Below are positions 2,479 through 52,899 of a stretch of 64,000 nt of DNA, one piece after another. The translations under genes and the position numbers were made by a program. The notes beneath the pieces are model-generated. The model saw only the letters and a list, made by a program, of their open reading frames with translations. It was not told the DNA's origin and searched no databases. The DNA is from an uncultured Candidatus Saccharibacteria bacterium (lineage in GTDB: Bacteria; Patescibacteriota; Minisyncoccia; HO2-45-28). The stretch spans positions 764 to 64,763 of the forward strand of contig CAYPMM010000001.1 of assembly GCA_964412115.1 (NCBI GenBank). The letters are read 5' to 3'. How positions within the stretch are numbered: the first letter of the stretch is position 1; each line of letters opens with the position of its first letter.

Positions 2479-3677
2479 AAGTTCTGTTTATAACCTCATA
2501 CGGTTTCAACGAGCGCATGAGAAATTTTGCCGAATACATAGCCGCGCGCGTTCTGGCCGAGCGAGGAAACGCGGTTTTCGCCGTAGCGCGCCCGGAAAAG
2601 GGTGAACCGTATTTTGAAGTCAAAGACGGCATAAAAATATACAAACCCGCTGGAGTTTTAAAAATAATTTGGCTGACGGCCAGGCTTATTTTTTATGAGC
2701 GCCCGGACAGAGTCCACATTTTCAACACCAGAAATAACCGCGCCGGAATCATTGCCGCCCTTCTTTGCTATTGGTCCGGCAGGCCGTTTATTTTTACCGA
2801 GTACGGGCTCCTGCATGATTATTATCTGGTGACGGACAGAGACGACCCGTATCCATATGAGGAAAAAATAAAATTTGACCGCCCGATTCTCGGCTTCAAA
2901 AAAGTTTTTCGGGACCTTAAATTAAAACAAAATATTAAAAATTATCTTTACCACTTTCCGCTATCCAAGGCCCGGGAAGTTGTTTTTGTTTCCAAACACA
3001 ATCTGTGGATTGCCGGAAAAATGGGCATTACCAACACAAAATATCTGCCGTACATCTATGATGACAAACGCTGGTCCTCCGAAAATGCAAACGCAGACTT
3101 AAACCTCGCGCGAAGGGCTGCGGAGAAAAAAAATAAAGGCCGAAGACTCATTTTATTTGTCGGGCAAATAAAATTAAGAAAGGGCTGGGATGTTGCGCTG
3201 GAAGCGATGGCCGAGATTAAAACCGATCTTAACGCCGAGCTTTTGTTTATCACCTCAAGTTCGCCCGGCGAAACCGAGATTGTTTTTAAACTAATTGACC
3301 GGCTGGGCATTAAAGATCGGGTAACTTTCTATGAACGGGTGGACGGAGAAACTCTTAAACGGCTTTATGAAATATCCGATGTGGTTATAGTGCCCTCGCG
3401 CTATGAAGGATTTGGCCTGGCGGTCCTTGAGGCCTGGGAAATGCGCAAACCTGTGGTGGCTTCAGACGTTATAGCCATAAATGAACATGTTTTAAACGGC
3501 GTAAACGGAATGCTTGTTCCGCCCAAAAATCCTCCGGCATTGGCCAAAGCGATTGAAGACGTTCTTAGCGACGGCATTTTGAGAGACAAAATTACCGCCG
3601 GAGGCGCCGCGTCTCTTGATTTATTGAAATCGCCTTCCGCGCGCGACCAGTGGCTTGAACTTTACTTGCGTAAATAA
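2475..3677 (+). CDS. glycosyltransferase family 4
   Basis: C-terminal VVIVPSRYEGFGLAVLEAWEMRKPVVASD (GT4 EX7E motif); 4-nt overlap with upstream gene. Confidence 0.7.
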   Translation: MKVLFITSYGFNERMRNFAEYIAARVLAERGNAVFAVARPEKGEPYFEVKDGIKIYKPAGVLKIIWLTARLIFYERPDRVHIFNTRNNRAGIIAALLCYWSGRPFIFTEYGLLHDYYLVTDRDDPYPYEEKIKFDRPILGFKKVFRDLKLKQNIKNYLYHFPLSKAREVVFVSKHNLWIAGKMGITNTKYLPYIYDDKRWSSENANADLNLARRAAEKKNKGRRLILFVGQIKLRKGWDVALEAMAEIKTDLNAELLFITSSSPGETEIVFKLIDRLGIKDRVTFYERVDGETLKRLYEISDVVIVPSRYEGFGLAVLEAWEMRKPVVASDVIAINEHVLNGVNGMLVPPKNPPALAKAIEDVLSDGILRDKITAGGAASLDLLKSPSARDQWLELYLRK

Positions 3678-8896: not shown

Positions 8897-10018
8897 TTAT
8901 TTTTCCGGCGGCGTCCAGCCGTTCTGCACTTCTTTTAAAATATTTTTGGCCGCCGAAACGCAGGTTATAATTTTACCGCTCAAAACCGAAAAACACCCCC
9001 GGCCGTGGCTGACAACGTCGGTCGGACGGATATCGGCGGATTTGGCCGAAAGGTCAACCGGCAATATGACGAACATTGACTCAACATATTCGGCGCCGCG
9101 TATCGCCGGAATCCACTTTGCGCATCTGGCCCGCATTTCCGGCCAGCGAGATTTTAACATTCCCAGTTTTTTTTCCAATGATGTGGCGCTGTTTTTTTGC
9201 GAATGGATTTCATGCACCGACAAAGGAACGTCGCCGAAAGTAAAAATATTTTTTCGGGCCGTCGGAATTAAAGTCGTAAACGGCCCGTCGACGACGGTTA
9301 TGGCGTATTTTTGTTTAACATTCAATTTCACCGCGATTATTTCTTTCAACCGAAACTCCAGTTTCTTTTTGGGAAAACCCAGCCAGCCGCAAAATTCATT
9401 GTAGTTGGCGTATGTCGCGTTAATAACGCAATCAAAAGCGTATTCTTTTCTTTTCCCTCCGGATTCAACGGTCAGAACTTTTTGACCGTCTTTGGAAAAT
9501 CGCGCGCCGAGAACTTTATGGTTGGGTTTAAAATTAATCTTGCCGTTATTATTCAGCCTGTTTTTTATAAGGCGTTTTAATTTTTCGTAGTCATAAACCG
9601 CCTCTTTTGTTCGGACGCACGCGTCAACCGAATCGGGGTTTAAAAATTCGGCGGGCGGATACTCCTTTTTGTGCCAGATATTATTTTTTTTGCAGTTGAA
9701 CAAAAAATCTTTCGCTGAAATTTTGGAATCCGCTTTAGCCACGCCGTAGAAACTGGGAAAATCATAAACGATCGCGTTTTTATAAAAAGACGTAAAATCG
9801 CTTGTCGCGGCTTTTATTTCCTTTATCATTTCGGAGCTTCTGGGATAATGAAAACCGGCATGATGCCTATACTGATTTTTTCTGGAAGCTTCGGAAAGTA
9901 TGCCGGAGTGTCTCTCAAATAAAGTAACCGGGTACTTCTTTCCCAAAATAAGGGCGCAGGTCGTCCCGAAAATTCCCCCGCCGATAATAGCGATACGCGG
10001 CTTTTTAATTTCCTTCAT
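8897..10018 (-). CDS. FAD/NAD(P)-binding oxidoreductase
   Basis: N-terminal IAIIGGGIFGTTCAL Rossmann dinucleotide motif. Confidence 0.5.
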   Translation of the reverse strand: MKEIKKPRIAIIGGGIFGTTCALILGKKYPVTLFERHSGILSEASRKNQYRHHAGFHYPRSSEMIKEIKAATSDFTSFYKNAIVYDFPSFYGVAKADSKISAKDFLFNCKKNNIWHKKEYPPAEFLNPDSVDACVRTKEAVYDYEKLKRLIKNRLNNNGKINFKPNHKVLGARFSKDGQKVLTVESGGKRKEYAFDCVINATYANYNEFCGWLGFPKKKLEFRLKEIIAVKLNVKQKYAITVVDGPFTTLIPTARKNIFTFGDVPLSVHEIHSQKNSATSLEKKLGMLKSRWPEMRARCAKWIPAIRGAEYVESMFVILPVDLSAKSADIRPTDVVSHGRGCFSVLSGKIITCVSAAKNILKEVQNGWTPPEK

Positions 10019-10946
10019 TTAACTTGTTTTCTTTTATTTCGCGGATGCTGTAAGGCGGGCGATTTGTGGAAGCGTAATAAATGGGAAGCAGAATCTCCGC
10101 GAGCAATCCCATCATAAAAAGCAAAACTCCCAAAATGGCAAAAAGGGTTCCGACCACCGGCAGAGGCGTTGCCGTAAAATCTTCAATGCCAAAGAGCCGT
10201 AAAATAACAGCTGTCCCGAACGCGAGCATTGAAAGAAAAATGGAGACGGCTCCCCATCCGCCAAAAAATCTCAAAGGTCTTGAAAAATACCGAATAAAAA
10301 AAACAACGCTTAATAAATCAAATCCTGTTTTTATCATTCTGGGGATGTTGGTTTTAGACTCGCCGAATTCCCTGAATTGGTGCGAAACGACAACCTCGCA
10401 TATTTTAGCGCCTCTCTCTTTGGCGATGGCCGGAAGAGACGCTTGCGCGTCTCCCAAAAGCCGGAAATCTTTAATAAAATCGCTACGGTACGCTTTTAAA
10501 CCGCATCCAAAATCGTGAAGGGGAACATCGAGCGCCACCCGCGCGGCATAATTCGCGACGCGGGAAAAAAGAACGCGCGACCATCGGTCCTTTCTTTCCT
10601 TTCGCCAGCCGGACACCGCGCCGCATCCTTCTGATATCTTTTCAAGAAATTTAGGAATGTCGGCCGGGTCGTTTTGGAGGTCGGCGTCCAATAAAATAAT
10701 ACTATCCCCTTTTGCTTCTTGAATGCCAACATCCAAAGCGATCGTTTCTCCGCAATTTCTTCGAAGAAAAATCATTTTAAGAGGCCGGAGATTTTCCATT
10801 TCTTTACGCGTTTTGTCCGTTGACGCGTCATCAACAAAAATAATTTCATAGGGCTCCGCTTGTCCCCGCATTGCGTCAACAATCCGGCGATGAAGCTCGC
10901 GGATGGTTTTTTCTTCATTGAAAACCGGCACAACGATAGAAATCAT
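10005..10946 (-). CDS. GT2 polyprenol-phosphate glycosyltransferase (DPM1/GtrB/ArnC-like) with C-terminal TM helices
   Basis: MISIVVPVFNEE...DDASTD...LDADLQND motifs, two C-terminal TM segments. Confidence 0.7.
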   Translation of the reverse strand: MISIVVPVFNEEKTIRELHRRIVDAMRGQAEPYEIIFVDDASTDKTRKEMENLRPLKMIFLRRNCGETIALDVGIQEAKGDSIILLDADLQNDPADIPKFLEKISEGCGAVSGWRKERKDRWSRVLFSRVANYAARVALDVPLHDFGCGLKAYRSDFIKDFRLLGDAQASLPAIAKERGAKICEVVVSHQFREFGESKTNIPRMIKTGFDLLSVVFFIRYFSRPLRFFGGWGAVSIFLSMLAFGTAVILRLFGIEDFTATPLPVVGTLFAILGVLLFMMGLLAEILLPIYYASTNRPPYSIREIKENKLNEGN

Positions 10947-10957
10947 ATTATCTAATT

Positions 10958-10992
10958 AAACAAAAAAGCGAGGCTGTGTCAACCTCGCTTAA
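10958..10992 (-). terminator. intrinsic terminator after radical SAM gene
   Basis: AAGCGAGG-loop-CCUCGCUU hairpin followed by UUUUUUGUUU on minus strand. Confidence 0.55.
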
Positions 10993-10996
10993 CGGT

Positions 10997-12520
10997 TCAT
11001 TTTAATATATTTTCCGCTCTGGCGCGTATGCGTTCTTCAACATACTCTTTCGGATTCATTTCGCGCCACGCCCGGTCTCTTAACTCCACGATTCGTTCCG
11101 GCGGCACCGTCGTGTTATACATGACGGCGTTGACGAAATTCATGGAATCGGGATCAAAATCGCGGTCTAAATATCCCTCGGCGATCGCCATGTCATAAAG
11201 CTGACTGCCCGGAAAGGGAATGGGTATAAAAGGAGAGCAGTAAGCAGCCCCGGCGTCCACAAGCCTTTTTCCCAATTCAACGCTTTGAAGAATTTCTTCT
11301 TCCGTTTCGTCGGGAAAACCGATCATCATGTTGATGGGGCATTTAATCCCGAGACGGGTCGCGATGCGAACGAGCTCGACTACGTCCAAAGTGCTCAAAT
11401 TTAGTTTGGCGGTCGCGTACTTATCCAAAATGCGCTGTGAGCCGGATTCCACCGGAAAAGAAATCTCATCAAAACCGGCGTCTCGCAAAAGTTCCAGATA
11501 CTGGGCGTCAATTTCCAACTTGCCGTTTTTTCCCCGCCTTTGAAAATGAACGAGGTTCACGCCGTTGATTGCAGCTATTCGCAACCCCATGCCAAGCACA
11601 TTTTCAAATATGGTTTTTACGCGCGATTTATTCGCAAGCAGGCTGTCATCTTCAAAAAAAAGCTTATAAACCCCGAGGTCGCGCAGTCTCCTTACTTCCT
11701 CAAGCACTCTGGCAACCGACTTTATCCGATAGGCGCCGATATTTCCGCTTCCAAGCGGGTCTTCTTTTTCCTTGGAGATATGGCAATAGGCGCACCGAAA
11801 AGGGCATCCGCGAGAGGTCATAATAGGCGCGTACCTTACTTTGGGCGCAAACTCCACGCCGGATCTGGAAGAAACAATGCGGTCGTAATGCCTAAACGGC
11901 AGTTTTTCCCACGTGGGAAACGGCAGTTCGTCAAGATTCATGTGCGTATCGCACGGCGCAACCGGATTTGTAACGCGCCGCTTTTCCGCCTGATACGTGA
12001 TGCCCGAAACACGGCCGTAACCCAGCCCGGCAACCCACGCCTCAACAATCTTAACAAAAATTTTTTCTCCTTCGGTAAGGCAGATGATATCCACCGCTCC
12101 GCTCTCAAAAAAACGGCCCGGCAAATTTTTAGCGTTCGTTCCGCCGGACACAACCAAAATATCCGGATTAACGTCTTTTGCGGTTACGGCGACTTCCAGG
12201 GCCATTCTGGTTTGAGGAGTAAAGTTTGAATTGATGCCGATGATGTCGTATTTGCCGTCGGCAATGAATGTTCGAAGCCGTTCTTGAGACATCCCTATGC
12301 GCGTAAGCCCGTTCGGCTGGCGCACCGCGCGATAAAACGTGTCGTCCAAATTATCCGTCTCCGCTCCGACCGACGCGTCAAGAATATCGGCTTCGAATCC
12401 GGCCCGTTCAAGCGCGCCGGCAAGATATAAAAGACCAAGCGATCCGTCGGGTCTTGGCTGTTCAATTGACGCCAGTTGGTTTGGAGGATAAATAAGCAGA
12501 ATTTTCGGGTTTTTCCTCAC
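10997..12520 (-). CDS. B12-binding radical SAM protein (class B)
   Basis: N-terminal cobalamin-binding-like domain; CPFRCAYC radical SAM cluster motif. Confidence 0.75.
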   Translation of the reverse strand: MRKNPKILLIYPPNQLASIEQPRPDGSLGLLYLAGALERAGFEADILDASVGAETDNLDDTFYRAVRQPNGLTRIGMSQERLRTFIADGKYDIIGINSNFTPQTRMALEVAVTAKDVNPDILVVSGGTNAKNLPGRFFESGAVDIICLTEGEKIFVKIVEAWVAGLGYGRVSGITYQAEKRRVTNPVAPCDTHMNLDELPFPTWEKLPFRHYDRIVSSRSGVEFAPKVRYAPIMTSRGCPFRCAYCHISKEKEDPLGSGNIGAYRIKSVARVLEEVRRLRDLGVYKLFFEDDSLLANKSRVKTIFENVLGMGLRIAAINGVNLVHFQRRGKNGKLEIDAQYLELLRDAGFDEISFPVESGSQRILDKYATAKLNLSTLDVVELVRIATRLGIKCPINMMIGFPDETEEEILQSVELGKRLVDAGAAYCSPFIPIPFPGSQLYDMAIAEGYLDRDFDPDSMNFVNAVMYNTTVPPERIVELRDRAWREMNPKEYVEERIRARAENILK

Positions 12521-32295: not shown

Positions 32296-33407
32296 GATTC
32301 AACAATTTTTTGATAATATTCCTCTGCAGACGGTAACCCTCGGGTCTTTTTTACCGCTTCTTCAATCAAACCGCCCCGCAACTCGTCATTTTCCAAAATG
32401 CGTAAAATTGCGCCAATCAGTGCGTTTTTATCGCCTACGGACACAATAAGACCGTTTTTTCCGTCTTCAATAAGTTCTCCCGCAAGACCGACATCGGTCA
32501 TTATAACAGCCGCGCCATATTGCATGGCCTCAACCACGCTCACCCCCCAGCCCTCATATAAACTAGTTAAAAGAAAAACATCGGCGCCTTTGTAATATGA
32601 AGCAGTATTTTTCTGCCATCCTTCAAATCTTATATTAGCTGTTAATTGATAGTTTTTGGATTTTATCTCAAGAGCTTTTCGTTCGGGTCCGTCGCCAACT
32701 ATTATCAAACCGGTTTTGGGATGTTTTTTAACCACTTCAGCCATTGCGTCAAGTGCTAACCCGATGTTTTTTTCTGAGGTAAGGCGCGAGACCATTAAAA
32801 TCGTTTTACTAAATTCGGGGAAACGCTTTGGTTCAATATTTAAATCTGCCGATTCGGCTAAAATCGGCAAAACCACGACTTTGGGGCCGGGGGCTTGGGG
32901 CTGGGGGCTTGGAATAGACCGCCTGATGCGTTCCGACACGACACGGATACATGACGCCCGTGGAATCAAAAATTTTGCGAGCGTTGCCCTCATTTTATTA
33001 AATACCGAGTGTCTAATAAAAAACGGAATAAAAATATCGGCATGAATCTGCATCTGCCAAGGCGTGCCAAATCTTAAAGACAAAAGCCAGCAGATTTTGG
33101 CATGCTCGATATCCTGCGCGACCAGTAAATTATGTTTATTTTTCGCAATCAACCGCCATGCCAGAAAAAAACCTGAAAAAAATCTCCAAAAAATCCCGCC
33201 CTTGGCATACACAAAAAGATTCCCCTGATTATTCCCATGAATTTTCCCGGGAATTTTTCTTGCAAGCACAACAACATCAAGCCGTTCCAGGCGCTTCGCG
33301 TATTCTCCCACTCTTTTTGCTGCGGCTGAATCCTTGTCTAAAATATTCGGATCAGCCGAAAACATCAGTATTTTCATAACAATTCTTTCTGATAGCACTC
33401 TTTGCAT
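32280..33407 (-). CDS. glycosyltransferase family 4
   Basis: TSLYEGWGVSVVEAMQYGAAVIMTDVG (EX7E motif). Confidence 0.7.
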   Translation of the reverse strand: MQRVLSERIVMKILMFSADPNILDKDSAAAKRVGEYAKRLERLDVVVLARKIPGKIHGNNQGNLFVYAKGGIFWRFFSGFFLAWRLIAKNKHNLLVAQDIEHAKICWLLSLRFGTPWQMQIHADIFIPFFIRHSVFNKMRATLAKFLIPRASCIRVVSERIRRSIPSPQPQAPGPKVVVLPILAESADLNIEPKRFPEFSKTILMVSRLTSEKNIGLALDAMAEVVKKHPKTGLIIVGDGPERKALEIKSKNYQLTANIRFEGWQKNTASYYKGADVFLLTSLYEGWGVSVVEAMQYGAAVIMTDVGLAGELIEDGKNGLIVSVGDKNALIGAILRILENDELRGGLIEEAVKKTRGLPSAEEYYQKIVESWQKC

Positions 33408-35080
33408 AAAATATACGGGGTTTCGTTTTCCGGATGCGAGGTTTCAAAACCGGCGCTGCATTTGGAGCATTTGCGCTTAAAAATACGCAGGTTTTTGACC
33501 CAGATGGCGAATTTTTCGTTGATTCGGCAGAAAGGGCACTCGCGAGGCAACGGCAGATTCATCTCCCGCAAAAACTTAAGCTCCATCGGGATGATTTTAT
33601 ACCCTCGACCACACTTTTTACATTCAACGACTTCTTGTAAAACATTATCCGGTGCGTCTTTGATGTTATCGGGCAAGTCATTAGCCTTTTTGGTTGTCTG
33701 ATATTCTTTTTTGTCCTCATCCCGCCACCAATAACCCCGTTCTTCGGCCTCTTCTTTAGTCAAAGGAAAGAAGTTTTGGGCAACTGTTTCATTATAAGCA
33801 TAGGGCTGGATTTCTGTAGGGAAAAACTCGCCGTATCTATACACTCGGCCATTTTTGTCTACATAAGGCATATCATTCATGTGCTCAATAATTTCGGCGC
33901 GAAGTTTTTCAAACTCTTCTTTTTCGTAGCGTTTGTTCAAAATTACATAATCTCCTTTTTTCATAGAAACGCATCCGAAATGGTTTGACCCGCCGGCTGA
34001 AAGCTTGCAGTATTCAGCATTAAAAAGATTGATGCCCGCCTCTTGGCAAAATCTCATATTTGAGGAGTTTTCTCCAATAATAGCTCCCTCGTAAGAGAAT
34101 GTTAGATTTTGGCCCCAGTTAGTAATATCATAGCAATCTTTAATTGGGGGATCTGCTACCAAAAACATATATTTACAGTCCTCCGCGCCTACAGTCTCAA
34201 AACATTCTTTGCAATTTTTGGATTGAAAAACATAATTTCCGGAAGAATTAACAGAAAGAGTGTCATAATACGGCCTTGGCGAAAATTTTTTCCAATATTC
34301 TTCGGCCAATTTCTTGACCTCCTGATAAGTTCTATATGAACCCAAATCCCATTTGGAAATTTCTTTAAAATAACCTTCTTTTGAGTATTGTTTATTGAAA
34401 ATATGGTATTTTTTGTTTCGCAAGTTGGCCGACGCAAAACAATTTTGGGAATTATGCACATCACGGCAGAAAAAACATTCAAACGACTCCGTCATATCAA
34501 AATGAGAGCCAACACACTTATTACATTTAAAAGAATGTGTACAGTCATAAAGAAGTTCATTTGTATGAATAAAAGAGGAATCAAAACAGGATTTGCTATG
34601 CAATAAAACCAAACCATAGGCAGAATCCTCACAAAAAGAGCCGTGAAATATCAAATAACAATTTTTAAGATAATCGTTATGATTGGTATAGGGAGATGTT
34701 GCCATTGACTCTTTGCCGATTGAAAGTCCGAGAAGCGGGACCTCTCGCCACATTTCTTTTAACTGCTCAAAAAAAGGACGCGAAAAATCGTAGTCGCGTC
34801 CGTATTCGTGGGGGTCCCAGTTATCAGACCACCAGCAAGTTGGGCAGTAGGCCTTAACAGGCGCTTCCGGCGCATACATAGAAATTGAGTCCTTTCCGCA
34901 TAAATCACACTTCCTTTTATAAAGATTCACCAAATTCTGAAAAGAAAGACGTCTCTGGAAACGGCATTTGGGGCACCACGTCGGCGCGGGAACTTTTATT
35001 TTTTCGTAAAACTCAAAATCCTCCGGCTCAATTGTGAACTCGTTTCTACAATTCTGACAATTTTTAATTTCTTTTTGCAT
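33374..35080 (-). CDS. Cys-rich zinc-ribbon protein, paralog 1 of 3 (unknown family)
   Basis: 568 aa; N-terminal CQNC...CPKC...CDLC...CPTC and C-terminal CKKC...CPFC...CSKC...CKEC ribbons; central region rich in Cys/Asn/aromatics; paralogs at 46043-47749 and 48277-49959. Confidence 0.6.
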   Translation of the reverse strand: MQKEIKNCQNCRNEFTIEPEDFEFYEKIKVPAPTWCPKCRFQRRLSFQNLVNLYKRKCDLCGKDSISMYAPEAPVKAYCPTCWWSDNWDPHEYGRDYDFSRPFFEQLKEMWREVPLLGLSIGKESMATSPYTNHNDYLKNCYLIFHGSFCEDSAYGLVLLHSKSCFDSSFIHTNELLYDCTHSFKCNKCVGSHFDMTESFECFFCRDVHNSQNCFASANLRNKKYHIFNKQYSKEGYFKEISKWDLGSYRTYQEVKKLAEEYWKKFSPRPYYDTLSVNSSGNYVFQSKNCKECFETVGAEDCKYMFLVADPPIKDCYDITNWGQNLTFSYEGAIIGENSSNMRFCQEAGINLFNAEYCKLSAGGSNHFGCVSMKKGDYVILNKRYEKEEFEKLRAEIIEHMNDMPYVDKNGRVYRYGEFFPTEIQPYAYNETVAQNFFPLTKEEAEERGYWWRDEDKKEYQTTKKANDLPDNIKDAPDNVLQEVVECKKCGRGYKIIPMELKFLREMNLPLPRECPFCRINEKFAIWVKNLRIFKRKCSKCSAGFETSHPENETPYILCKECYQKELL

Positions 35081-43985: not shown

Positions 43986-45476
43986 TTACACAATAGGCTC
44001 GGGGGGCGAGTCGGAAGGCTCGGCGGCCAGCTCCTTGTTCGCGTCCTCCTCAACACTCGGTGTTGGGATCCCGGAAACACCGAGTGTTTTCCTGGGCGCA
44101 GGAGAAAGTCCCAAAAGCTCGTTTTCTACTTCGATTATTTTTTTCTTTACCTCGTCAACAGGGGCGGCAAAATTTTTACGGCTGAACTCAATTATTTCGT
44201 CCTTAAACGATGCGTGCGCCGGCGGCAGAACTTTCAAAGTTTCGGCAGAAAACGGGTCGGCGGTATCTCCGTCAATCGTCATTTTTATATAAAATTGCTG
44301 CATCCCGAGATTAACCATATCTTTAGCCTTAAACACCGGCGTCATTTCGTTTTCAAGTTTGGCGGCATCATCCCCGCCCACTCTAAATACAACAATCGTC
44401 CCGACATTTCCCAAAACCGATTCTCTGACATGGGGAATCAATTGGCCCATAAACTGGTGGGCCACGGTAAGATTGATGCCGTATTTTCGCGCCTCCGAAA
44501 AAATATTTACGAAAGTGGTCGTAACCAGATTATGAAACTCGTCGACGTAAAGATAAAAGTCCTTTCTTGACTCTTCGGGCATCGCCGCCCTGGCCATTCC
44601 GGCCTGTTTTATTTTGGTGATGAACATGGAGCCGAAAAAACTGGAGTTCTCCTCGCCCATTTTGCCCTTCGAAAGGTTTATCAAAATAATTTTTTTCTCG
44701 TTCATTATATTCTCAAGGTCAATCTTGTTTTCCTGCTGTCCAAAAATATAGCGCAAGTACGGATTGGCCAAAAATTGCCCCAATTTATTTACAAGCGGAA
44801 TTATGGCGTCGGTATCAAACTTTTCAGACCAGTCGGCAAACTCAATCGCCCAGAACCGCTTGACCATTTCGTCTTCAATATATTCAATAACTTTTTGGCG
44901 GTATTTACGGTCGGTAAGCATTGAAATCATCCCGCGCATTGTCGCCATCGGAAAATCAAGAAGGGCGAGCACGGTGAAGCGAAACACATGCTCAAGGCGA
45001 GGCGTCCAGTTCGCGCCGAATTGCTTTTCCATTACCTCAATTAACCCCTGCGCCACCTGATGTTTAAGGTCGGGATTTACGTTTTGCAGAGGATTGAAAG
45101 AAATCGGCCATTCGGTGTCCGACGGGTCAACAATTATTGTATCTTTGACGCGTTCCTCCGGGATGAAGTTCAAAACCTCTTCAATTACGTCTCCGTGCGG
45201 GTCCATCAGGCAAATCCCGTGGCCGAATTGAATGTCCTGGCGAAGCATAAGTTCCAGAAGTTTTGATTTGCCCACGCCGGATTTCCCGACGATATACATA
45301 TGCCGCCTGCGATCGCGGCGTTTTATGCCGAAAATAAATTTTTTTTCTTCAAGCCCGGCGACATAGTTAGTACGCCCGAAAAAAACGACTTCTTTCGGGT
45401 CAAATTGCTTATATATCGGGAGTTCCGGAGGAGGCGGCGCGTATTTTATTATTTGTATCTTTCCTTCTCGCGCCAT
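43986..45476 (-). CDS. VirD4/TraG/TraD-like coupling ATPase paralog (short form)
   Basis: Walker A IVGKSGVGKS, Walker B LYVDEFHN; same family pattern as 40791-42803. Confidence 0.6.
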   Translation of the reverse strand: MAREGKIQIIKYAPPPPELPIYKQFDPKEVVFFGRTNYVAGLEEKKFIFGIKRRDRRRHMYIVGKSGVGKSKLLELMLRQDIQFGHGICLMDPHGDVIEEVLNFIPEERVKDTIIVDPSDTEWPISFNPLQNVNPDLKHQVAQGLIEVMEKQFGANWTPRLEHVFRFTVLALLDFPMATMRGMISMLTDRKYRQKVIEYIEDEMVKRFWAIEFADWSEKFDTDAIIPLVNKLGQFLANPYLRYIFGQQENKIDLENIMNEKKIILINLSKGKMGEENSSFFGSMFITKIKQAGMARAAMPEESRKDFYLYVDEFHNLVTTTFVNIFSEARKYGINLTVAHQFMGQLIPHVRESVLGNVGTIVVFRVGGDDAAKLENEMTPVFKAKDMVNLGMQQFYIKMTIDGDTADPFSAETLKVLPPAHASFKDEIIEFSRKNFAAPVDEVKKKIIEVENELLGLSPAPRKTLGVSGIPTPSVEEDANKELAAEPSDSPPEPIV

Positions 45477-45477
45477 A

Positions 45478-46014
45478 TTAAATCGCGGATAATTCCTCTA
45501 AAGCTTTTCTATAGGCGCCGAGGCTTTTCATTGTTTCCTCGTGGCTCGGGCGGAAATTCGGCTCATGCGCTATGCTGTTTCTTAGTTTGTGCGCTTCCCA
45601 GATATCGTTTAAGACGGGTAACTCTCCTGGAGCAAGAGACCTAAGCCGTTCGGCCAGATTTTTACCCAAAAAACCGAGCCGGCCCATCGTTTCTTCAAGA
45701 AGAATGTCGGCCTCAATGATAGCCATGGCGTAACCCTGCGGGCCGGAAGTTTTGATTTTATTTACAATCGAGTCCCAGCGGCGTCTTGTTCTTAGTTTTA
45801 CCTCTTCTTCAAAATTAGCCTGTTTTTGAGGCGCTTGGTAAGCCCTGCGTCCTTCAAGAACGTATAATTTTTTCCTTAAGGGAAATGTTTTTATAAAGAC
45901 CCATGCCGAGAGCGCGAGAAGCGTCGGACCCAAAAAAATCAGGATAATTCTGATTCCGGAGTAAAGCCTTACCCAAAAACCCGCGTCAAACAAAAACCAA
46001 TCCGGAAAGTTCAT
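45478..46014 (-). CDS. membrane-anchored protein with HEPN-like Rx4H motif (DUF4145-like)
   Basis: Start set at internal ATG 46012-46014 to avoid overlap with upstream gene; one TM helix; C-terminal ...HKLRNSIAHEP. Confidence 0.35.
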   Translation of the reverse strand: MNFPDWFLFDAGFWVRLYSGIRIILIFLGPTLLALSAWVFIKTFPLRKKLYVLEGRRAYQAPQKQANFEEEVKLRTRRRWDSIVNKIKTSGPQGYAMAIIEADILLEETMGRLGFLGKNLAERLRSLAPGELPVLNDIWEAHKLRNSIAHEPNFRPSHEETMKSLGAYRKALEELSAI

Positions 46015-46042
46015 ATATTTATGATAATCAATAACACCGGTT

Positions 46043-47749
46043 TTATCCAACCTCGCGATTATAACATTCCTCGCAGTATAAAATATCCGGCTTTTCGGGC
46101 GAAAACGGGCTTGTAACTTCTTTTTCGCATTTAGCGCATTTACGGTTATAAAATTTAGGCGGATTGGTTTGGGCGAGCCGGTCCAAATGACGGCATTCCT
46201 GGCACTTTCGGGGTAATGGAAAATTCCACTTACGCAAAAGCGCGAGCTCTCCTGAAACAATTCTGAATCCCTTACCGCAAGCAGCACATCCGATAATTTC
46301 TTTGAGAATGTCGTCAGAAACGTCTTTAATGTCGTCCGGCAAGTCTTCGGATTTTTTTGTTATTTTATATTTTTGCGGTTCGTCGTCTTTCCACCGCCAG
46401 CCGGAGGCCAAAACTTCGTTTTTGGTTTTCGGAAAATAATACATCGCCCACGATTCGTTGTAATCAAAAAAACTCAAATTATACGGCAAAAACTCGCCGT
46501 ATTTCCAAACCTTTCCTTTTGAGTCCGTATAAGGATTTTTGTTCATGTCTTCAATAATCCGCGCGCGCAATTTCAAGTAATCCTCTTTTGAATACTGCTT
46601 ATTTAAAATACAATAAGATTTTTTAAAAAGGCCGACGCATCCGAAAATGTGCTGGCAAAAACCGGTCATCATTGAATAATCAATATCCAAGGTGCCCGAC
46701 AAAACACAGCCGAAACTAAATCTGACCGAATCCGCGCCTTCGCCCACGGTTATACATTCATAAATCCGCTGAGCATTGTTGCCCCATTCGGTATAGTCAT
46801 AGCAATCTTTTGTGGGACCCATTGAAATGAATTGTGCGAATCGGCAGTCCTCCGCCCCGGAAACTATATAGCTGTCTTTTACATTTTTAGACCAATAAAT
46901 ATAATCGCCCGAAGAATTTACGGCGTTTTGGCTGTGCATAAATTTTTTGGGGTAACGAAGCCAAAATTCTTTGGTTTTTTGTTTCAGTTTCTCAATTTCG
47001 CCGTATGAAGAAAGTTTGAATTTTGATAGTTCTTTTTGATAATCTTCTTTTGAATATGATTCGTTAAAAATATGATATTTCTTGCGCCTTAGACCGACAC
47101 AGCCGAAACAATCCGAGCATCCGGCCAAATCGCGAGAAAAATAAACATTAAAACAGTCTTCGCAGTCATCAGAAAAATGAACATTTGAATTTCTGGATGA
47201 ATTTATGTTTTCATAACAAAGCTGAATTTCTTCGGCAGAATAACAATCCATGGAATCTTTTGAATAATTTATAGTGTTGGAGTAGTAGCAATTTTCGTCA
47301 AAGTCGGCATCAAAAATCATATAGCAATTTTTTAGGTTTCCGGCGTGATTTACATATTCGCTGTTCACAAGCGTTGAGTGGTTGTTAAAAAGACCCGGGT
47401 AAGGTACTTTAAGCGATAATTCTTTTAATTGTTCAAAAAAACTGCGATTCGGGTCATAGTCCTGCCCGAATTCCATTCCGTCCCACTTGTCCGACCACCA
47501 GCACTTGGTGCAATAAACCTTAAACGGCTTGTCGGGAGAAATGTTGGAGAGTATGTCCTTGGCGCATAAACCGCATTTTCTTTTGTAAAGTTTCCGCGCG
47601 TTTCTGAACATCATTCTCCTTTGCATCCTGCACTCCGGGCAAAAAGTCGGCGCGGGGACTTTTATGCGCGCGTAAAATTCAAAATCCGCGGGTTCAATCG
47701 TGAACTCGGCTTTGCAATTCTGACAGGTTTTTGTTTCGGATTTATTCAT
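46043..47749 (-). CDS. Cys-rich zinc-ribbon protein, paralog 2 of 3
   Basis: 568 aa; N-terminus ~70% identical to paralogs; ATGA start/stop overlap with upstream RelE-like toxin gene. Confidence 0.6.
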   Translation of the reverse strand: MNKSETKTCQNCKAEFTIEPADFEFYARIKVPAPTFCPECRMQRRMMFRNARKLYKRKCGLCAKDILSNISPDKPFKVYCTKCWWSDKWDGMEFGQDYDPNRSFFEQLKELSLKVPYPGLFNNHSTLVNSEYVNHAGNLKNCYMIFDADFDENCYYSNTINYSKDSMDCYSAEEIQLCYENINSSRNSNVHFSDDCEDCFNVYFSRDLAGCSDCFGCVGLRRKKYHIFNESYSKEDYQKELSKFKLSSYGEIEKLKQKTKEFWLRYPKKFMHSQNAVNSSGDYIYWSKNVKDSYIVSGAEDCRFAQFISMGPTKDCYDYTEWGNNAQRIYECITVGEGADSVRFSFGCVLSGTLDIDYSMMTGFCQHIFGCVGLFKKSYCILNKQYSKEDYLKLRARIIEDMNKNPYTDSKGKVWKYGEFLPYNLSFFDYNESWAMYYFPKTKNEVLASGWRWKDDEPQKYKITKKSEDLPDDIKDVSDDILKEIIGCAACGKGFRIVSGELALLRKWNFPLPRKCQECRHLDRLAQTNPPKFYNRKCAKCEKEVTSPFSPEKPDILYCEECYNREVG

Positions 47750-48042
47750 TTTTGTTTTCGCAATAATCGCTTATAGATATTATCGCGCGCGTCAGCAATA
47801 AGCAATTTAATGGTGTGATTGGCAACAAATTTAAAGCCGACTCGATAATCACGGGTGATACGAAAAGAAAGCACGCCATGAAGCGGAGCCCCAAGACGTT
47901 TGGTATGCAATCTAGAATCAAAAGGATTTTTTCGAAGAATTTCTATAAGAGCCCCTAATTTATCTTGAACCTTACTTGGCAGATTATAGACATCTTTTTT
48001 GAAATCCGCCTCATAAATTATCTCATTTGACGGAACGGACAT
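47746..48042 (-). CDS. type II toxin, RelE/ParE family
   Basis: ...LHGVLSFRITRDYRVGFKFVANHTIKLLIADARDNIYK; start at internal ATG overlapping antitoxin by 20 nt (track start 48069). Confidence 0.6.
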   Translation of the reverse strand: MSVPSNEIIYEADFKKDVYNLPSKVQDKLGALIEILRKNPFDSRLHTKRLGAPLHGVLSFRITRDYRVGFKFVANHTIKLLIADARDNIYKRLLRKQK

Positions 48043-48247
48043 GGCGCAAAAATGCTTCCTTTGTGGCAAAGTGATACATTGTGCCTCGAGAAGACATTCG
48101 TTTGAGCATTTTTTTTACGAAAGCGGGTTTGTATTCACCTTCGGGGTCGCGATATCCCGCGAGAAGCAGATTTTTAACAACCTCCATATCCTTTCGGAGA
48201 ACAGAAACATCTTTATTAAGTTTTTTTACCAGAGTTTGGGTGGTCAT
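48023..48247 (-). CDS. putative antitoxin (74 aa) of RelE/ParE pair
   Basis: small ORF immediately upstream, overlapping the toxin. Confidence 0.4.
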   Translation of the reverse strand: MTTQTLVKKLNKDVSVLRKDMEVVKNLLLAGYRDPEGEYKPAFVKKMLKRMSSRGTMYHFATKEAFLRHVRSVK

Positions 48248-48276
48248 ATAACTTTATAATAACAAAAATACAAATT

Positions 48277-49959
48277 TTACGCAATTTCTTGTTTATAACA
48301 TTCCTCGCAGTAAATATACGGAAACTCGTCGGCGGCGTAAACTGAATCCACAGCTTTGTTGCACTTTTCGCACGCGCGAGAATAGAACTTTAAATGGTCA
48401 GCGATGAACCGAAGGCGTTGTTTATGCCGCTCAAAGGGGGCGAGCCGTGGAATTGGGATGTTAAAACGGCGGTAAAACGCAAGCTCTATCGGTATAATCC
48501 TATACCCATTCCCCGACGCTTTACATTTCAAAACTTTTTCTAAGATGTCGTCCTTAACATCACTAATGTCATCCGGAATGACGTAATCAGAAAAGACAGG
48601 CGACTCGGCTTTATATCTACTCCAAGCCAAGCCGGTCTTTTCGGCGTCATCCTCGTTGAGAGGGAAATACTCATAAGCAACTGTTTCGTTGTACGCAAAT
48701 GGAGATAACTCAAACGGCAAAAATTCTCCGTACCGATATTGCCGACCCGCCTTATCCACATACGGCATGTCATTCATGTGTTTGCGAATTTTCGTCGTAA
48801 GATTTTCGTATTCTTCTTTTGTGTATCGTTTGTTTAAAATACAATAGTCCTGTTTTTTCAAATTCATTGAGCCGAAACAATTATGACTTGCGGAAATGAA
48901 ATAGGAATATTCAATATTCGTACATCCCTCAAGTACTCCAATCGAAAACCTAACGTTGGCAATCTGATGTACTCCCCCCATCAATTCATATAAGAGTTCG
49001 CCACCCCACACGGATGTTGTGTCATAAGCGTCTTTAACCTGAAGAGTAAACAAAATATACTTTGAATCCTCAGTCTTTTCGGTAAGCCAACAAAAACTGC
49101 AACGTTTTGATTCATTGATGAAGTTGCCTTTTGAATTAACAGAACGTTCTATAAAAACGGCTCTCTGCGGCCGTGACTTCCAAAAGTCAAGGACCCGTTT
49201 TTTTACTTCTTCCAACCGAGAATACGACCCGTTTAGGTTCTCCCTTAGAAAACGCTCAAATTCATCTTTTGAAACCGGTTTGTTGAATATATGGTATTGT
49301 TTGTTCCGCAAACCGCTACAACCAAAAACATTAGAACAATTTCTGCAGTCAAAACAGAAGTATGAGTCGTGACAATCATAACAAAGCTTTGAATAAAAAA
49401 CCTTGTAGCAATTTTCGGAAAGCGTCGCTTCATATCCAAACTCCCCTTGTTGAAACCAGTATGTGTCAAAAGTGTCTTTGGTTTTAAGCGCATATTGGTT
49501 ATATGCGCCGTCCTCATTATCATGGCCACCAAAATTAAGATAGCAATTTTTTTCGTCTGTTTCGTAGTTGCACCATGGGCTATTCACCATATTTACCTGA
49601 AACAAAGCGAGGTGAGGAATATCGCGCTGTAGTTCTTGAAATTGAAGCAGGAACGATTTTGAAAAATCATAATTTCTGCCATATTGCATCGGATCCCACT
49701 TGTCCGAATAAAAACAGGTTGGGCAATATACCTTAAACGGCTTATCCGGCGAATACATTGTGATAACGCTTTTATGACAAAGATCACATGACCGTTTATA
49801 GAGCGTGCGTTCATTTCGCCACGCAAGCCGTCTTTGCAGTCTGCACTCCGGGCAAAAAGTCGGCGCGGGGACTTTTATGCGCGCGTAAAATTCAAAATCC
49901 TCGGGTTCGATTGCGAACTCTTGTTTGCAATTCTGACAAATTTTAATCTCTTTTTGCAT
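48277..49959 (-). CDS. Cys-rich zinc-ribbon protein, paralog 3 of 3
   Basis: 560 aa; 60-nt stretch (49841-49900) identical to 47628-47687. Confidence 0.6.
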   Translation of the reverse strand: MQKEIKICQNCKQEFAIEPEDFEFYARIKVPAPTFCPECRLQRRLAWRNERTLYKRSCDLCHKSVITMYSPDKPFKVYCPTCFYSDKWDPMQYGRNYDFSKSFLLQFQELQRDIPHLALFQVNMVNSPWCNYETDEKNCYLNFGGHDNEDGAYNQYALKTKDTFDTYWFQQGEFGYEATLSENCYKVFYSKLCYDCHDSYFCFDCRNCSNVFGCSGLRNKQYHIFNKPVSKDEFERFLRENLNGSYSRLEEVKKRVLDFWKSRPQRAVFIERSVNSKGNFINESKRCSFCWLTEKTEDSKYILFTLQVKDAYDTTSVWGGELLYELMGGVHQIANVRFSIGVLEGCTNIEYSYFISASHNCFGSMNLKKQDYCILNKRYTKEEYENLTTKIRKHMNDMPYVDKAGRQYRYGEFLPFELSPFAYNETVAYEYFPLNEDDAEKTGLAWSRYKAESPVFSDYVIPDDISDVKDDILEKVLKCKASGNGYRIIPIELAFYRRFNIPIPRLAPFERHKQRLRFIADHLKFYSRACEKCNKAVDSVYAADEFPYIYCEECYKQEIA

Positions 49960-49975
49960 GTTCTCTTATTCGCAC

Positions 49976-50033
49976 GCCTGCCTGTCGGTAGGCAGGAATT
50001 AGGGATATATTAAAACGTGTTGATATATCAACA
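49976..50033. promoter_or_regulatory. hairpin CCTGCC-N8-GGCAGG and 16-bp perfect palindrome TGTTGATATATCAACA upstream of paralog 3
   Basis: palindrome overlaps a possible TTGATA-16-TATATC promoter on minus strand. Confidence 0.4.
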
Positions 50034-50049
50034 TATTTTGTTTTAAGAA

Positions 50050-51393
50050 TTATTTCTTTTCTTTCGGCTCCGCGTCCGGTATTTTCAGACCGGGGACTTC
50101 CGATTCCTCGCCGAAAATGGGAAGGCCCGCTGGCGGGCCCATGCGTTTGGCCTCCATCCTTTTGATAAAGGGCGCTGTCAGCACAAGAAAAGACGGCGGA
50201 TGAAAAAGGGTGGCAATGCCTTCGGAGGTAATAATCGCCGGTTTTGACTTTTTGTCAAAATAGAAAAATTGCGATTCTATGATACTGCCAATTTTCGTCT
50301 CCGGCGGCATGGCTCTTTTTATGAAATTAATAAGGATTCTTTGTTTTCTGGCCTCCTCGCGTTTTTTGTAGAAAAAGTGCGGAAACTTCAGCCAATTAAC
50401 CATGGTTCTGGTCGGAATTACCGGAATAAACCAATTTTGAGTCGGAATGGAATACTGGGCGAAGGCCCCCCTTACTCCGCGGTAAGGAGTCTGGCGGTTA
50501 AAAATGGCGCGGGGAGCCAAATAAATGTAGCGTATTATTGTTTCAAAAGGCGCGTTGGAGGCGTTTTTGCCGACCGCTTTCATCACTTCTTCTTCCCCCG
50601 GAGAACGGAAAAGAGTAAGCGCCTCCATGCTTGCGGCGCCCTGAATCCTTTTTGAAGCCGATTTTTCTTTCAACTCCGCGGTGAGCGCGTTGTTTATTTT
50701 CTGCCATTCGACCGGATCGGCCGGCCTTATTAAAATCTGGAGCCACAGATGCTCTTCTTTTTTCAGTTTCGCCAAAACCTCAACCAAAACCGACATCGGG
50801 TCAAGAGATTTTTCTTCTTCAATCGCTTCAAAAAACGGATATGTTTTAAAAGGATAGGCGTTGTTTCGGCCGAGAGACAATTCGAGTCCGAAAAGATCCA
50901 AACCCATTTTGTAAAGGTCGGTTGTCTTGGCCGGCAGGCGTTTTACGTAGTCATCAACCTCAATCATTTCTATTTCTTTGTAGTTGCCGTAAAAAGCGGC
51001 CTCCACTATGTTTTTGTATTTGGCCGGCGTCTTGACGTAAAAATGCGTTTCGCCGTTAAGCTGGGCAATCTCCAAAGACCACCATTCAGTCACCTCCCCC
51101 TCCCAATATTTTTCAATAAAATTTTCGGGACTATTCCGGAGGCTGTAAAGCTTATTTAAAATCTGTTCCATGGCTTTGGGCGATTTGCGTATTTCGCGCG
51201 GTATTCTTATCTCCAGAAGCGACCAGCGCATTTTGTCTTTGTAAATCATCATCCGGTAATACATCCAAATGTTCTTCAATAAAACCGCCGAAAACACAAA
51301 AAGCCAAAGCCACCAAAGCCTGGCTACAATCGTAAAGCCGGGTATTAACGCCGTCTTATATAAGATTTGAAGGGTTTCCCTTACTTCCGGCAT
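50050..51393 (-). CDS. hypothetical protein (447 aa, N-terminal TM helix)
   Basis: long ORF with typical codon usage, no recognisable motif. Confidence 0.5.
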   Translation of the reverse strand: MPEVRETLQILYKTALIPGFTIVARLWWLWLFVFSAVLLKNIWMYYRMMIYKDKMRWSLLEIRIPREIRKSPKAMEQILNKLYSLRNSPENFIEKYWEGEVTEWWSLEIAQLNGETHFYVKTPAKYKNIVEAAFYGNYKEIEMIEVDDYVKRLPAKTTDLYKMGLDLFGLELSLGRNNAYPFKTYPFFEAIEEEKSLDPMSVLVEVLAKLKKEEHLWLQILIRPADPVEWQKINNALTAELKEKSASKRIQGAASMEALTLFRSPGEEEVMKAVGKNASNAPFETIIRYIYLAPRAIFNRQTPYRGVRGAFAQYSIPTQNWFIPVIPTRTMVNWLKFPHFFYKKREEARKQRILINFIKRAMPPETKIGSIIESQFFYFDKKSKPAIITSEGIATLFHPPSFLVLTAPFIKRMEAKRMGPPAGLPIFGEESEVPGLKIPDAEPKEKK

Positions 51394-51401
51394 TACTTAC
51401 A

Positions 51402-52427
51402 TTATGCCAGATGAAAGCGCCCGTCGGAAAGCTTTTTAAAGTGAGTTCTGTTTTGAAGGTTTATGGCGATGGTGTTGTCTTTTACGTGGCGCTCCTGCTT
51501 GACAAATTTAATAAGCTCGTCTTTGGACATCGGGCCGCGTTTCTCAAGCACCGCTTTGACTATGTCTTTGACCGTCCCCGCCTGATAGCCCCAGCTGGAC
51601 AAGGCGTAAAGACCACGTCCGACAAGAACAAAGCGCTCGTCTTTAATAAGCTCGTTGTGAACCGTCTGCACGTGGGCGTGTTTTGAAGCCAGTTTCTCAA
51701 TGGATGAAGCCACTTCGCGAAAGTGCAGAGGAGAGCCGTGTTTTTTTAAAACAAGGTAGGCAAAATCGCGCATACCAGAAGGTCTGACTAAAGACGAGGA
51801 AGCAAGGCCCCACTCGCCAAAATTATTGGAAGTAATATTCTTTGAAATGCCGAGCCGCGCGAAAACGGCCTCCTTGCCGAGCGTATGGCCAAATTCGGAT
51901 TCAACGTGGGAACGAAATCTTTTTTCCATTTCGTCTTTAATTAAAGGTTCGTCTCCCAAATTGGCGCAAAAATTAGCTATTGATTTATGGGCGTCTTTTG
52001 ACGCTTTAAAATCGCTTGTCCAGCGGTGGTAAAAATCGGTATCGGCTCCGAGACGCTCAAACGGCCCGCCAAGAGACAAAAAGAAATAAACGTAGTTTTT
52101 TCCGTCTTCATCTGATGCAAAATGCGCCAGCGCCTCGTTTTCACGCCAGACACCGCCCCTTAATTCAAACTCTTTGGCAAGCTCTCCGAAAATCTGATCA
52201 GACGCTCCGAAACCCGGGCTTTGGCGCATTTTATTTATAGCCGCGGCTTCAATCTGGCGCACCCGCTCGCGGGTAATCTTATAGGTCTGGCCTATTGATT
52301 CCAAAGTCTGCCTTTTAGAGCGGGCTCCGATGCCAAACCGGCGCTCAACAACGTCGCGCGCTCGGCCTGAAATTTCTTTTAAAAGCGTTTTGGCTAAATC
52401 TTCAAAATTATTTGCGGTCTTGACCAT
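51402..52427 (-). CDS. sigma-70 region 4 domain protein with two C-terminal HARE-HTH-like winged helices
   Basis: LESIGQTYKITRERVRQIEAAAINKMR (region 4.2); RFVLVGRGLYALSSWG and KKLSDGRFHLA HARE-HTH-like. Confidence 0.5.
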   Translation of the reverse strand: MVKTANNFEDLAKTLLKEISGRARDVVERRFGIGARSKRQTLESIGQTYKITRERVRQIEAAAINKMRQSPGFGASDQIFGELAKEFELRGGVWRENEALAHFASDEDGKNYVYFFLSLGGPFERLGADTDFYHRWTSDFKASKDAHKSIANFCANLGDEPLIKDEMEKRFRSHVESEFGHTLGKEAVFARLGISKNITSNNFGEWGLASSSLVRPSGMRDFAYLVLKKHGSPLHFREVASSIEKLASKHAHVQTVHNELIKDERFVLVGRGLYALSSWGYQAGTVKDIVKAVLEKRGPMSKDELIKFVKQERHVKDNTIAINLQNRTHFKKLSDGRFHLA

Positions 52428-52510
52428 ATAATTTAACTTGAGCCTAGCTTACATTAAATAAAAAATATGTCAACTAGGTCAAATCAATGATAAAACATTA
52501 TAAAACAAAA

Positions 52511-52565
52511 CGCAAAAAAAGGCAAATGAAATGAAAAGGCCCCGCGCTCTCTACGAGCGGGGGCC
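52511..52565 (-). terminator. intrinsic terminator ending the GC-rich island (110 nt upstream of sigma-r4 gene)
   Basis: minus RNA GGCCCCCGCUC-GUAGA-GAGCGCGGGGCC followed by UUUUCAUUUCAUUUGCCUUUUUUU. Confidence 0.5.
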
Positions 52566-52862
52566 GGTACTGCGGGGTGGATCAGGCGTAGATGGTAATT
52601 TCGCGCAAGTGACCCGCGCGATTCGGATCGCTGGAGATAACGATTCGTCTCGTCTCCCAGCCGATCTGATTCTTGGGCCGACGGCTCGGGTGCAGGAGTT
52701 CTTTCTCGCCCCTACTGCCACGACGATGCTCGGCCATCTCTTGCGCCCTGTCGGCATAGTCCACCGTGGTGCCTTTGAACCCATCCCTTCCGTGCCCGTT
52801 TTCACTCACTGCCTCTCTCCTTCCGTTCTGGTTGATGGGCGGAAAAACTAACTTATTTTCAA
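52566..52862 (-). ncRNA. candidate ~330-nt GC-rich structured RNA (unclassified; independent ncRNA or long regulatory leader)
   Basis: GC far above window mean, only R/G-rich spurious ORFs, flanked by consensus promoter and terminator on the minus strand; no match recognised to RNase P CR-I, tmRNA or 6S. Confidence 0.35.
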
Positions 52863-52870
52863 ACACCTAC

Positions 52871-52899
52871 ATTATATATCAAAATGTAGTGTTTGTCAA
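52871..52899 (-). promoter_or_regulatory. consensus sigma70 promoter with embedded inverted repeat CTACAT...ATGTAG
   Basis: minus strand TTGACA-17nt-TATAAT. Confidence 0.55.

Follow-up and report, generated by a model that had tools for sequence, protein, structure and literature searches.

When a small toxin gene lies so close to a large gene of another family that the stop codon of the first overlaps the start codon of the second, is the large gene a partner of the toxin or only its neighbour? The question is raised by the minus strand of the 64,000-nucleotide stretch of DNA analysed here (the window), from an uncultured Candidatus Saccharibacteria bacterium, where the listing of open reading frames (ORFs), read with their strands, gives the order Cys-rich paralog 3, a 74-aa gene, a 98-aa gene and Cys-rich paralog 2. 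A sequence-only reading of this locus had taken the 98-aa product for a RelE/ParE-type toxin and the 74-aa product for its antitoxin, had proposed that both are co-transcribed and translationally coupled with paralog 2, and had suggested that the paralogs belong to a conflict or defence cassette rather than to housekeeping. The comparison of sequences and of predicted structures reported below supports well the view that the two small genes are a genuine type II toxin-antitoxin (TA) module. The explanation that we favour, with a confidence somewhat better than even, is that this module belongs to a sub-lineage which colonises the junctions of tandem Cys-rich paralogs in Parcubacteria-type Patescibacteria, and that it is co-expressed with the downstream paralog.

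The ORFs, their junction and their position between paralogs 3 and 2 were all found where the sequence-only reading had placed them. Paralog 3 (560 aa, 27 Cys; 48277-49959, minus strand, as are the three genes that follow it) is separated by a spacer of 29 nt from the 74-aa ORF (48023-48247), which has 20 nt in common with the 98-aa ORF (47746-48042), an overlap of identical length in relatives. The TGA stop codon of the toxin (47748-47746) then overlaps the ATG (47749-47747) of paralog 2 (568 aa, 32 Cys; 46043-47749), forming an ATGA that is read directly from the sequence at 47746-47749. An alternative TTG start of the toxin, which would have extended it to 48069, found no support and was rejected, as the 30 homologues all start at the position of the ATG at 48042 (MS.P.NEIIY). 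The idea that the ATGA is unusual in itself was likewise rejected, 4 of the 41 same-strand junctions between large window ORFs having a 4-nt overlap. Chance is exceeded not by the single 4-nt overlap but by the fact that other genomes repeat the arrangement as a whole.

The toxin, its upstream partner and their predicted promoter

The AlphaFold2 (AF2) model of the 98-aa protein had a pLDDT of 93.5 and adopted a RelE-type microbial RNase fold, in which two N-terminal helices pack on a small beta-sheet. When this model was compared with the PDB using Foldseek, 43 matches were obtained at E ≤ 0.001, all of them RelE, YoeB, YafQ, HigB or ParE toxins. The top matches were YafQ, RelE/RelK and YoeB (probability 1.0, template modelling (TM) scores 0.70-0.82), and ParE2 ranked below RelE, YoeB and YafQ. 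The profile PHROG 1213 ('RelE-like toxin') matched the window toxin over its full length (E = 1.8e-7), and among 30 toxin homologues profile matches at E ≤ 0.01 were found to PF05016 in 12, to a HigB-like family in 10 and to YoeB in 9. Among 5.8 billion proteins searched, 68 relatives were found, nearly all of them 97-98 aa long and from Patescibacteria, while more distant relatives of 86-90 aa carry PF05016, PF15738 or PF05015.

Residues K48, R61, R64, R67, R86 and Y90 were invariant across the 30 toxin sequences. In a sequence alignment, which is not a 3D superposition, K48, R61 and R67 align with E46, R59 and R65 of YoeB. In distant relatives the C-terminal Arg is preceded by a His, which the subfamily of the window toxin does not conserve. 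The ratio of nonsynonymous to synonymous substitution rates (dN/dS) indicated purifying selection on the toxin, with a median of about 0.13 and a value of 0.20 against its closest compared relative, L011 (loci are cited by such numbers), and no member of the toxin subfamily was found on IMG/VR viral contigs. The protein is a new member of a known superfamily and, judging from its sequence and model, most likely a ribosome-dependent mRNA endonuclease of the RelE/YoeB/YafQ type. The earlier proposal, that a toxin of the RelE superfamily follows and overlaps a small partner gene, is supported by the homologues, the PHROG match, the fold and the invariant residues.

The 74-aa protein is modelled as helical, with a long N-terminal helix (residues 3-30) and two further helices (residues 41-53 and 63-71), and it has 39 relatives of the same length. 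DUF2683 (PF10884), an uncharacterised family of small proteins, was matched at E ≤ 0.01 by 15 of 24 antitoxin relatives (best E = 6.9e-7); the window copy scored 19.9 bits (E = 8.9e-4, profile positions 31-60), below the gathering score of 27, and is best called DUF2683-like rather than a member of PF10884. In the literature that could be searched, one paper mentions DUF2683 in passing and no antitoxin role is documented for it. The 74-aa gene was found upstream of the toxin in 100 of 100 intact loci (73 distinct pairs), typically with the 20-nt overlap, and many toxins of a sister subfamily (85-87 aa) are likewise preceded by a remoter version of it. It too is under purifying selection, with a median dN/dS of about 0.12 and a value of 0.18 against L011.

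The 45 nt upstream of the antitoxin ATG were aligned for 71 distinct loci, showing the pattern TTGnnT, a 17-nt spacer and TGnTAnnnT, with the ATG about 6 nt further on. Of 64 distinct loci, 59 have TTGnnn-N16-18-TAnnnT with its end 5-9 nt upstream of the ATG, where shuffles give 0.8 on average and at most 4, and a Shine-Dalgarno (SD)-like motif preceded the ATG in just 2 of the 64. The sigma-70-type promoter predicted in the window from this comparison (48256-48284, minus strand) has its -35 box, TTGCGT (48284-48279), within the Ile-Ala-stop codons of paralog 3 (ATT GCG TAA). The extended -10 element TG-T-TATTAT spans 48264-48256, its TG occupying 48264-48263 and the -10 box TATTAT 48261-48256; 17 nt lie between the two boxes, and the antitoxin ATG follows 8 nt after the second. 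A simple scan for consensus promoters and terminators gave counts no higher than in shuffles and missed this promoter, because its -35 box fits only 3 of 6 positions.

These data argue that the TA pair has its own sigma-70-type promoter and predict an mRNA that is leaderless or nearly so. The transcript would begin at the antitoxin ATG itself or no more than about 2 nt from it, and the toxin would be translated by coupling through the 20-nt overlap. That a leaderless design is specific to the TA pair was considered and rejected, most window genes being without an SD sequence. An SD-like motif was found in just 12 of 55 window genes, many genes have a TAnnnT -10 box 5-9 nt before their ATG, and leaderless mRNAs appear normal in this organism.

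Recurrence at junctions of Cys-rich paralogs

A toxin alignment was used to scan one genome per species (GTDB) and the JGI metagenomes, yielding 160 loci. Of the 73 distinct antitoxin-toxin pairs, 42 lie directly against a Cys-rich paralog on the same strand, or against a recognisable remnant of a paralog head or tail; a further 24 stand free at both ends, and 7 were not classifiable. The spacing at these junctions recurs as well. From the paralog stop to the antitoxin ATG it is 27-29 nt in 14 distinct loci, and at the downstream junction of 28 distinct loci the stop and start codons overlap in 18, 12 of them in the ATGA manner and 6 by 1 nt (TAATG or TGATG). As a baseline, the 49 loci of the sister subfamily showed no adjacent same-strand paralog; a paralog lay within 5 kb in just two of them, on the opposite strand.

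The arrangement is preserved in the closest relatives. In L011, whose toxin is 77% identical to that of the window, the order is a sigma/HARE-HTH gene, a 447-aa gene, a paralog, antitoxin, toxin, ATGA and the head of a further paralog; paralog 3 of the window has its closest match in the L011 paralog that precedes the TA pair. In L012 (toxin 73% identical) a paralog, antitoxin and toxin are followed, after a 4-nt overlap, by three further paralogs, within surroundings whose order is rearranged. The absence of the pair from all related loci with paralogs, which would have made it an incidental insertion, was the outcome that the sequence-only reading had to fear; it is not what these genomes contain. 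The loci L001, L004 and L006, with toxins 64-67% identical to that of the window, have no paralog in their context, and in a neighbour-joining (NJ) tree of antitoxin plus toxin the free pairs fall mostly in one clade and the array-borne pairs in two deep clades.

Paralog 2 has no SD sequence, and its overlap with the toxin leaves no space for a terminator. With neither, co-transcription followed by termination-reinitiation would be the simplest reading: the downstream paralog would be co-transcribed with the TA pair and, its ATG overlapping the toxin stop, re-initiated from the TA mRNA. The coupling with the Cys-rich protein that had been proposed from the window is plausible on this comparison, the overlaps in the other loci included.

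Two observations concern the loci themselves. In L006 (7507-8903) and L009 (4805-6201) a free TA copy lies about 1.2 kb from a pair resembling a diversity-generating retroelement (bAvd and an RVT_1 reverse transcriptase), with a ribbon-helix-helix (RHH)/PemK pair further along, at about 5.7 kb, in the same neighbourhoods. L014 is titled Nanoarchaeota, and L060 and L069 Gammaproteobacteria, yet their genes are of Patescibacteria type, and many other loci are titled 'Saccharibacteria'; mis-binning or mislabelling of the metagenome-assembled genomes is likely.

Passenger or partner of the Cys-rich proteins

The Cys-rich family comprises more than 6117 sequence clusters, essentially all of them 'hypothetical' Patescibacteria proteins of about 566 aa, and it seems confined to Patescibacteria. 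The three window paralogs are 42-45% identical to one another and contain about 5% Cys. Paralog 1 (568 aa, 33374-35080, minus strand), detected by tblastn of the window, lies apart from the TA pair, with no TA pair of its own beside it. In paralog 2, treble-clef/zinc-ribbon modules at the N- and the C-terminus enclose a central domain of some 400 aa without known relative. The CxxC...CxxC modules at the paralog ends are matched by zf_Tbcl (PF13451), zf_Tbcl_2 (PF23477) and TIGR04272, zf_Tbcl_2 being matched by 19 of 22 family members, but these models span just some 40 residues at each end. For the central 400 or so residues no relative was found in Pfam, NCBIfam, PHROG, PADLOC or the PDB, where only a LIM-like similarity of the C-terminal zinc module was returned (best E = 0.005). 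An exact look-up of the paralog 2 protein gave no record, and a literature search found nothing on the family. In the paralog neighbourhood of L173, a 633-aa TrwB/VirD4-like ATPase (9904-11805) is fused to zf_Tbcl_2, the zinc finger of the Cys-rich C-terminus, which may hint at a functional link.

Are these proteins defence genes, as their association with a toxin had suggested? Loci found through the paralog contain tandem arrays of at least seven to nine divergent copies with no TA pair (L176/L177, 1-16849; L178, 1-11546), such arrays occur in genomes of about 0.7 Mb, at least nine copies being present in one of 0.73 Mb, and most arrays sampled independently of the toxin are without a TA pair. 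Other paralogs sit between two transketolase halves, beside GAPDH, or between DivIC and RF-1 by the ATP synthase operon. With PADLOC profiles no match was obtained at E ≤ 0.1 for the toxin, the antitoxin or paralogs 1-3, the sole match being BrxB for a 447-aa neighbour at chance level (E = 0.045), and no copy of the family was found on IMG/VR viral contigs. None of these observations marks the paralogs as defence genes. The notion of a conflict cassette does not survive the size of the family, its mostly TA-free arrays among housekeeping genes, the missing PADLOC and viral matches, and TA flanks that are not one orthologous partner.

Might toxin, antitoxin and paralog nevertheless form a functional three-gene unit, in which the TA promoter would be a stress switch for the paralog, or the Cys-rich protein a third component acting as modulator, target or chaperone, and in which selection for function would maintain the linkage? 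Such a unit would fit the stop/start overlaps kept in 18 of 28 loci, the constant upstream spacing and a paralog 2 without an SD sequence of its own. It would also fit an association that spans deep clades with toxins only about 55% identical, and the paralog-antitoxin-toxin-paralog order left intact in L012 despite its rearranged surroundings. Yet a whole clade of the TA subfamily, with its 24 pairs, is paralog-free, and the great majority of paralogs have no TA pair. The paralogs that flank TA pairs fall in several clades of their family and not in one orthologous group, several of the downstream 'paralogs' are fragments or are frameshifted, and unrelated TA families occupy equivalent junctions. 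We regard a functional unit of this kind as unlikely.

The position of the cassette is swapped between L096 and L013, which have one paralog in common at 97.5% nucleotide identity. L096 carries its TA pair on the upstream side of this paralog and L013 on the downstream side, with just 77% identity between the two pairs. At the junction upstream of the shared paralog, L013 carries a Gp49/HigB-like toxin and an HTH_3 antitoxin (2409-3062), with a stop codon that overlaps the paralog start. Other array junctions hold a PIN_3 protein with a 66-aa partner (L093/L094; L094 7021-7779), an NYN protein (L145 1777-2531) and a PaaX_M/Cas2-like protein (L012 9762-10502), and a UPF0150/HicB-like gene follows a paralog in L173 (6763-6978). 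Array junctions may be a general hot spot for small genes of toxin or nuclease type. The non-orthologous flanks and the other TA families at equivalent junctions therefore give the pair the look of a passenger, not of a dedicated partner.

Remnants of paralogs accompany the TA pairs in several loci. In L142 three consecutive TA pairs lie between two paralogs, and two of them are each trailed by a paralog head fragment of about 200 nt. Several seemingly free or half-free copies retain an upstream paralog tail remnant (ending in CYQAEVA and the stop) or a truncated head downstream, and the upstream remnant in L014 is a head-tail fusion. A paralog tail on one side and a paralog head on the other delimit the cassette. 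Both rank among the best-conserved stretches of the family at the DNA level: mean nucleotide identity is 0.69 in the head (codons 21-40) and 0.64 in the tail, against 0.38-0.55 in most of the interior, with codons 361-440 (about 0.6) and shorter stretches near 0.6 as exceptions. An integrase was not seen in any of the loci examined, though no search was made for attC sites. The GC content of the window pair (about 40-41%) is like that of the flanking paralogs and gives no base-composition sign of a recent foreign origin.

A single ancient insertion between two paralogs, passively kept by synteny and with the free copies as later escapes, would require neither mobility nor functional meaning. 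It agrees with the clustering of array-associated pairs in NJ clades apart from a mostly free clade, and with the syntenic order of the closest relatives, from the sigma/HARE-HTH and 447-aa genes through paralog, antitoxin and toxin to the next paralog. It agrees poorly with the non-orthologous flanks, with the L096/L013 swap of dissimilar pairs beside a nearly identical paralog, with the tandem cassettes and head fragments of L142 and with the head-tail remnants that adjoin TA pairs. Conserved orthologous synteny as the whole explanation was rejected on account of the flanks and the swap, and we consider the ancient insertion rather improbable.

In the explanation that we favour, a TA sub-lineage lodged in paralog junctions, recombination within the head and tail segments, or duplication and deletion within arrays, would move the cassette between junctions and between genomes. 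Patescibacteria are reported to keep homologous recombination and competence genes (PMC12455944). The module would be an addictive passenger, and a stabilising one, since deletion of the segment would set the stable toxin free; the module would drive the downstream copy incidentally and would not be an obligatory partner of the Cys-rich proteins. A bolder form of this explanation can be offered only tentatively, and we doubt that it holds in full. Here the TA lineage would be specialised for junctions, with the 3' tail and 5' head of the paralogs as portable homology arms that allow spread without a transposase. The downstream paralog would come under a TA-controlled, stress-responsive promoter, and the junctions would be an unrecognised hot spot for RelE, HigBA, VapC/PIN, NYN and Cas2-like genes in ultra-small genomes.

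Several points weigh against the favoured explanation. The loci were found by way of the toxin, and the picture of their neighbouring junctions is biased accordingly. The trees of antitoxin plus toxin and of the flanking paralogs are NJ trees without support values, and they do not set the polarity, that is, whether array-borne or free pairs came first. The homology of heads and tails is modest, the median longest exact match being 11 nt in heads and 8 nt in tails, and spread driven by recombination would be plausible just between close relatives. In the model of the candidate antitoxin no DNA-binding fold can be recognised, the protein is without a relative in fold or sequence in the PDB, where its best matches are at chance level, and no operator-like inverted repeat was found at the promoter (window 48200-48320); autoregulation is unsupported for these two reasons. 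Finally, the window toxin scores under the curated Pfam and NCBIfam cut-offs, with 18.4 bits against 23.9 for Gp49, 25.8 against 51.8 for YoeB (TIGR02116) and 17.3 against 27.9 for RelE_StbE (TIGR02385). These low scores, the long retention under purifying selection in tiny genomes and the unconserved His before the C-terminal Arg could also suggest a protein whose RelE fold has been domesticated, for instance as a factor associated with the ribosome or with RNA, and which causes no growth arrest, with the 74-aa protein as its partner subunit. This is very improbable, however, given that the basic and Tyr residues characteristic of RelE-type mRNases are all present and invariant, given the classic organisation (antitoxin first, overlapping ORFs, own promoter), and given that one clade is distributed patchily and across changing contexts, as mobile TA modules typically are.

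Some features of the wider locus were noted in addition. A recurring Patescibacteria neighbourhood (window 43986-52427; also L011, L012 and L173), whose gene order is rearranged between genomes, comprises a sigma70_r4/HARE-HTH gene (341 aa), a DUF8128-like gene (447 aa), one or more Cys-rich paralogs and a TrwB/DUF87-like ATPase (496 aa). A 269-aa ORF with a GTG start (45478-46287, minus strand) shares 245 nt with the 3' end of paralog 2; its true start is probably further downstream, and it has homologues in several related loci. A gene-free, GC-rich stretch of 468 nt (52428-52895, minus strand) is a candidate for an unannotated structured RNA. Its minimum free energy is -169.6 kcal/mol, against -134.7 +/- 6.9 kcal/mol for shuffles (z = -5.07), and it terminates in a GC hairpin and a U-run. 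It gave no Rfam match even at E ≤ 1 and contains no tRNA or tmRNA, and no tRNA gene was found in the 64-kb window.

Comparison with known systems

Through this TA pair, an uncharacterised DUF2683-like candidate antitoxin joins the partners of RelE-fold toxins, and DUF2683 gains a testable function. For the Cys-rich proteins, the TA locus offers an entry point to a large uncharacterised gene family, at least one copy of which would be conditionally expressed from the TA promoter. More generally, the locus may illustrate a new route of persistence and spread for TA modules in streamlined genomes with few mobile elements, namely nesting between tandem paralogs whose ends are borrowed for a promoter, for translational coupling and possibly for recombination. 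No description of such an array-nesting lifestyle was found in the literature that could be searched.

Compared with RelBE, YefM-YoeB and DinJ-YafQ, the window pair has the same toxin fold (beta-alpha-alpha-beta-beta-beta and a C-terminal helix, TM 0.7-0.8), the same kind of conserved Lys/Arg/Tyr constellation and the same order, with the antitoxin gene first, overlapping ORFs and an own promoter. It differs in the longer C-terminal helix of the toxin (KRLLRK..), which is without the His before the C-terminal Arg, and in its partner, which is not RelB, YefM/Phd or DinJ and has no RHH, Phd or HTH fold. Unlike those systems, most members of the window subfamily sit within a paralog array.

In tripartite TA systems, such as the HigBA-SecB-like chaperone TAC systems and PaaR-PaaA-ParE, a third gene is co-transcribed with toxin and antitoxin. 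Co-transcription of a third gene is likewise predicted here from the sequence. In the present case, however, that gene encodes a 568-aa zinc-ribbon protein downstream of the toxin; it is not one ortholog, is missing from a whole clade of TA pairs and is often a fragment.

The superintegrons of Vibrio offer another parallel. There, TA cassettes stabilise the chromosomal integron arrays. The Patescibacteria loci have in common with them small TA modules, RelE/ParE and HigBA types among them, that are scattered in a uniform orientation through long arrays of non-essential genes, where they could penalise deletions. The arrays described here differ in that they consist of paralogs of one family, that the borders of the cassette are a paralog tail and a paralog head, and that the -35 box of the TA promoter is built from the stop-codon region of the upstream gene.

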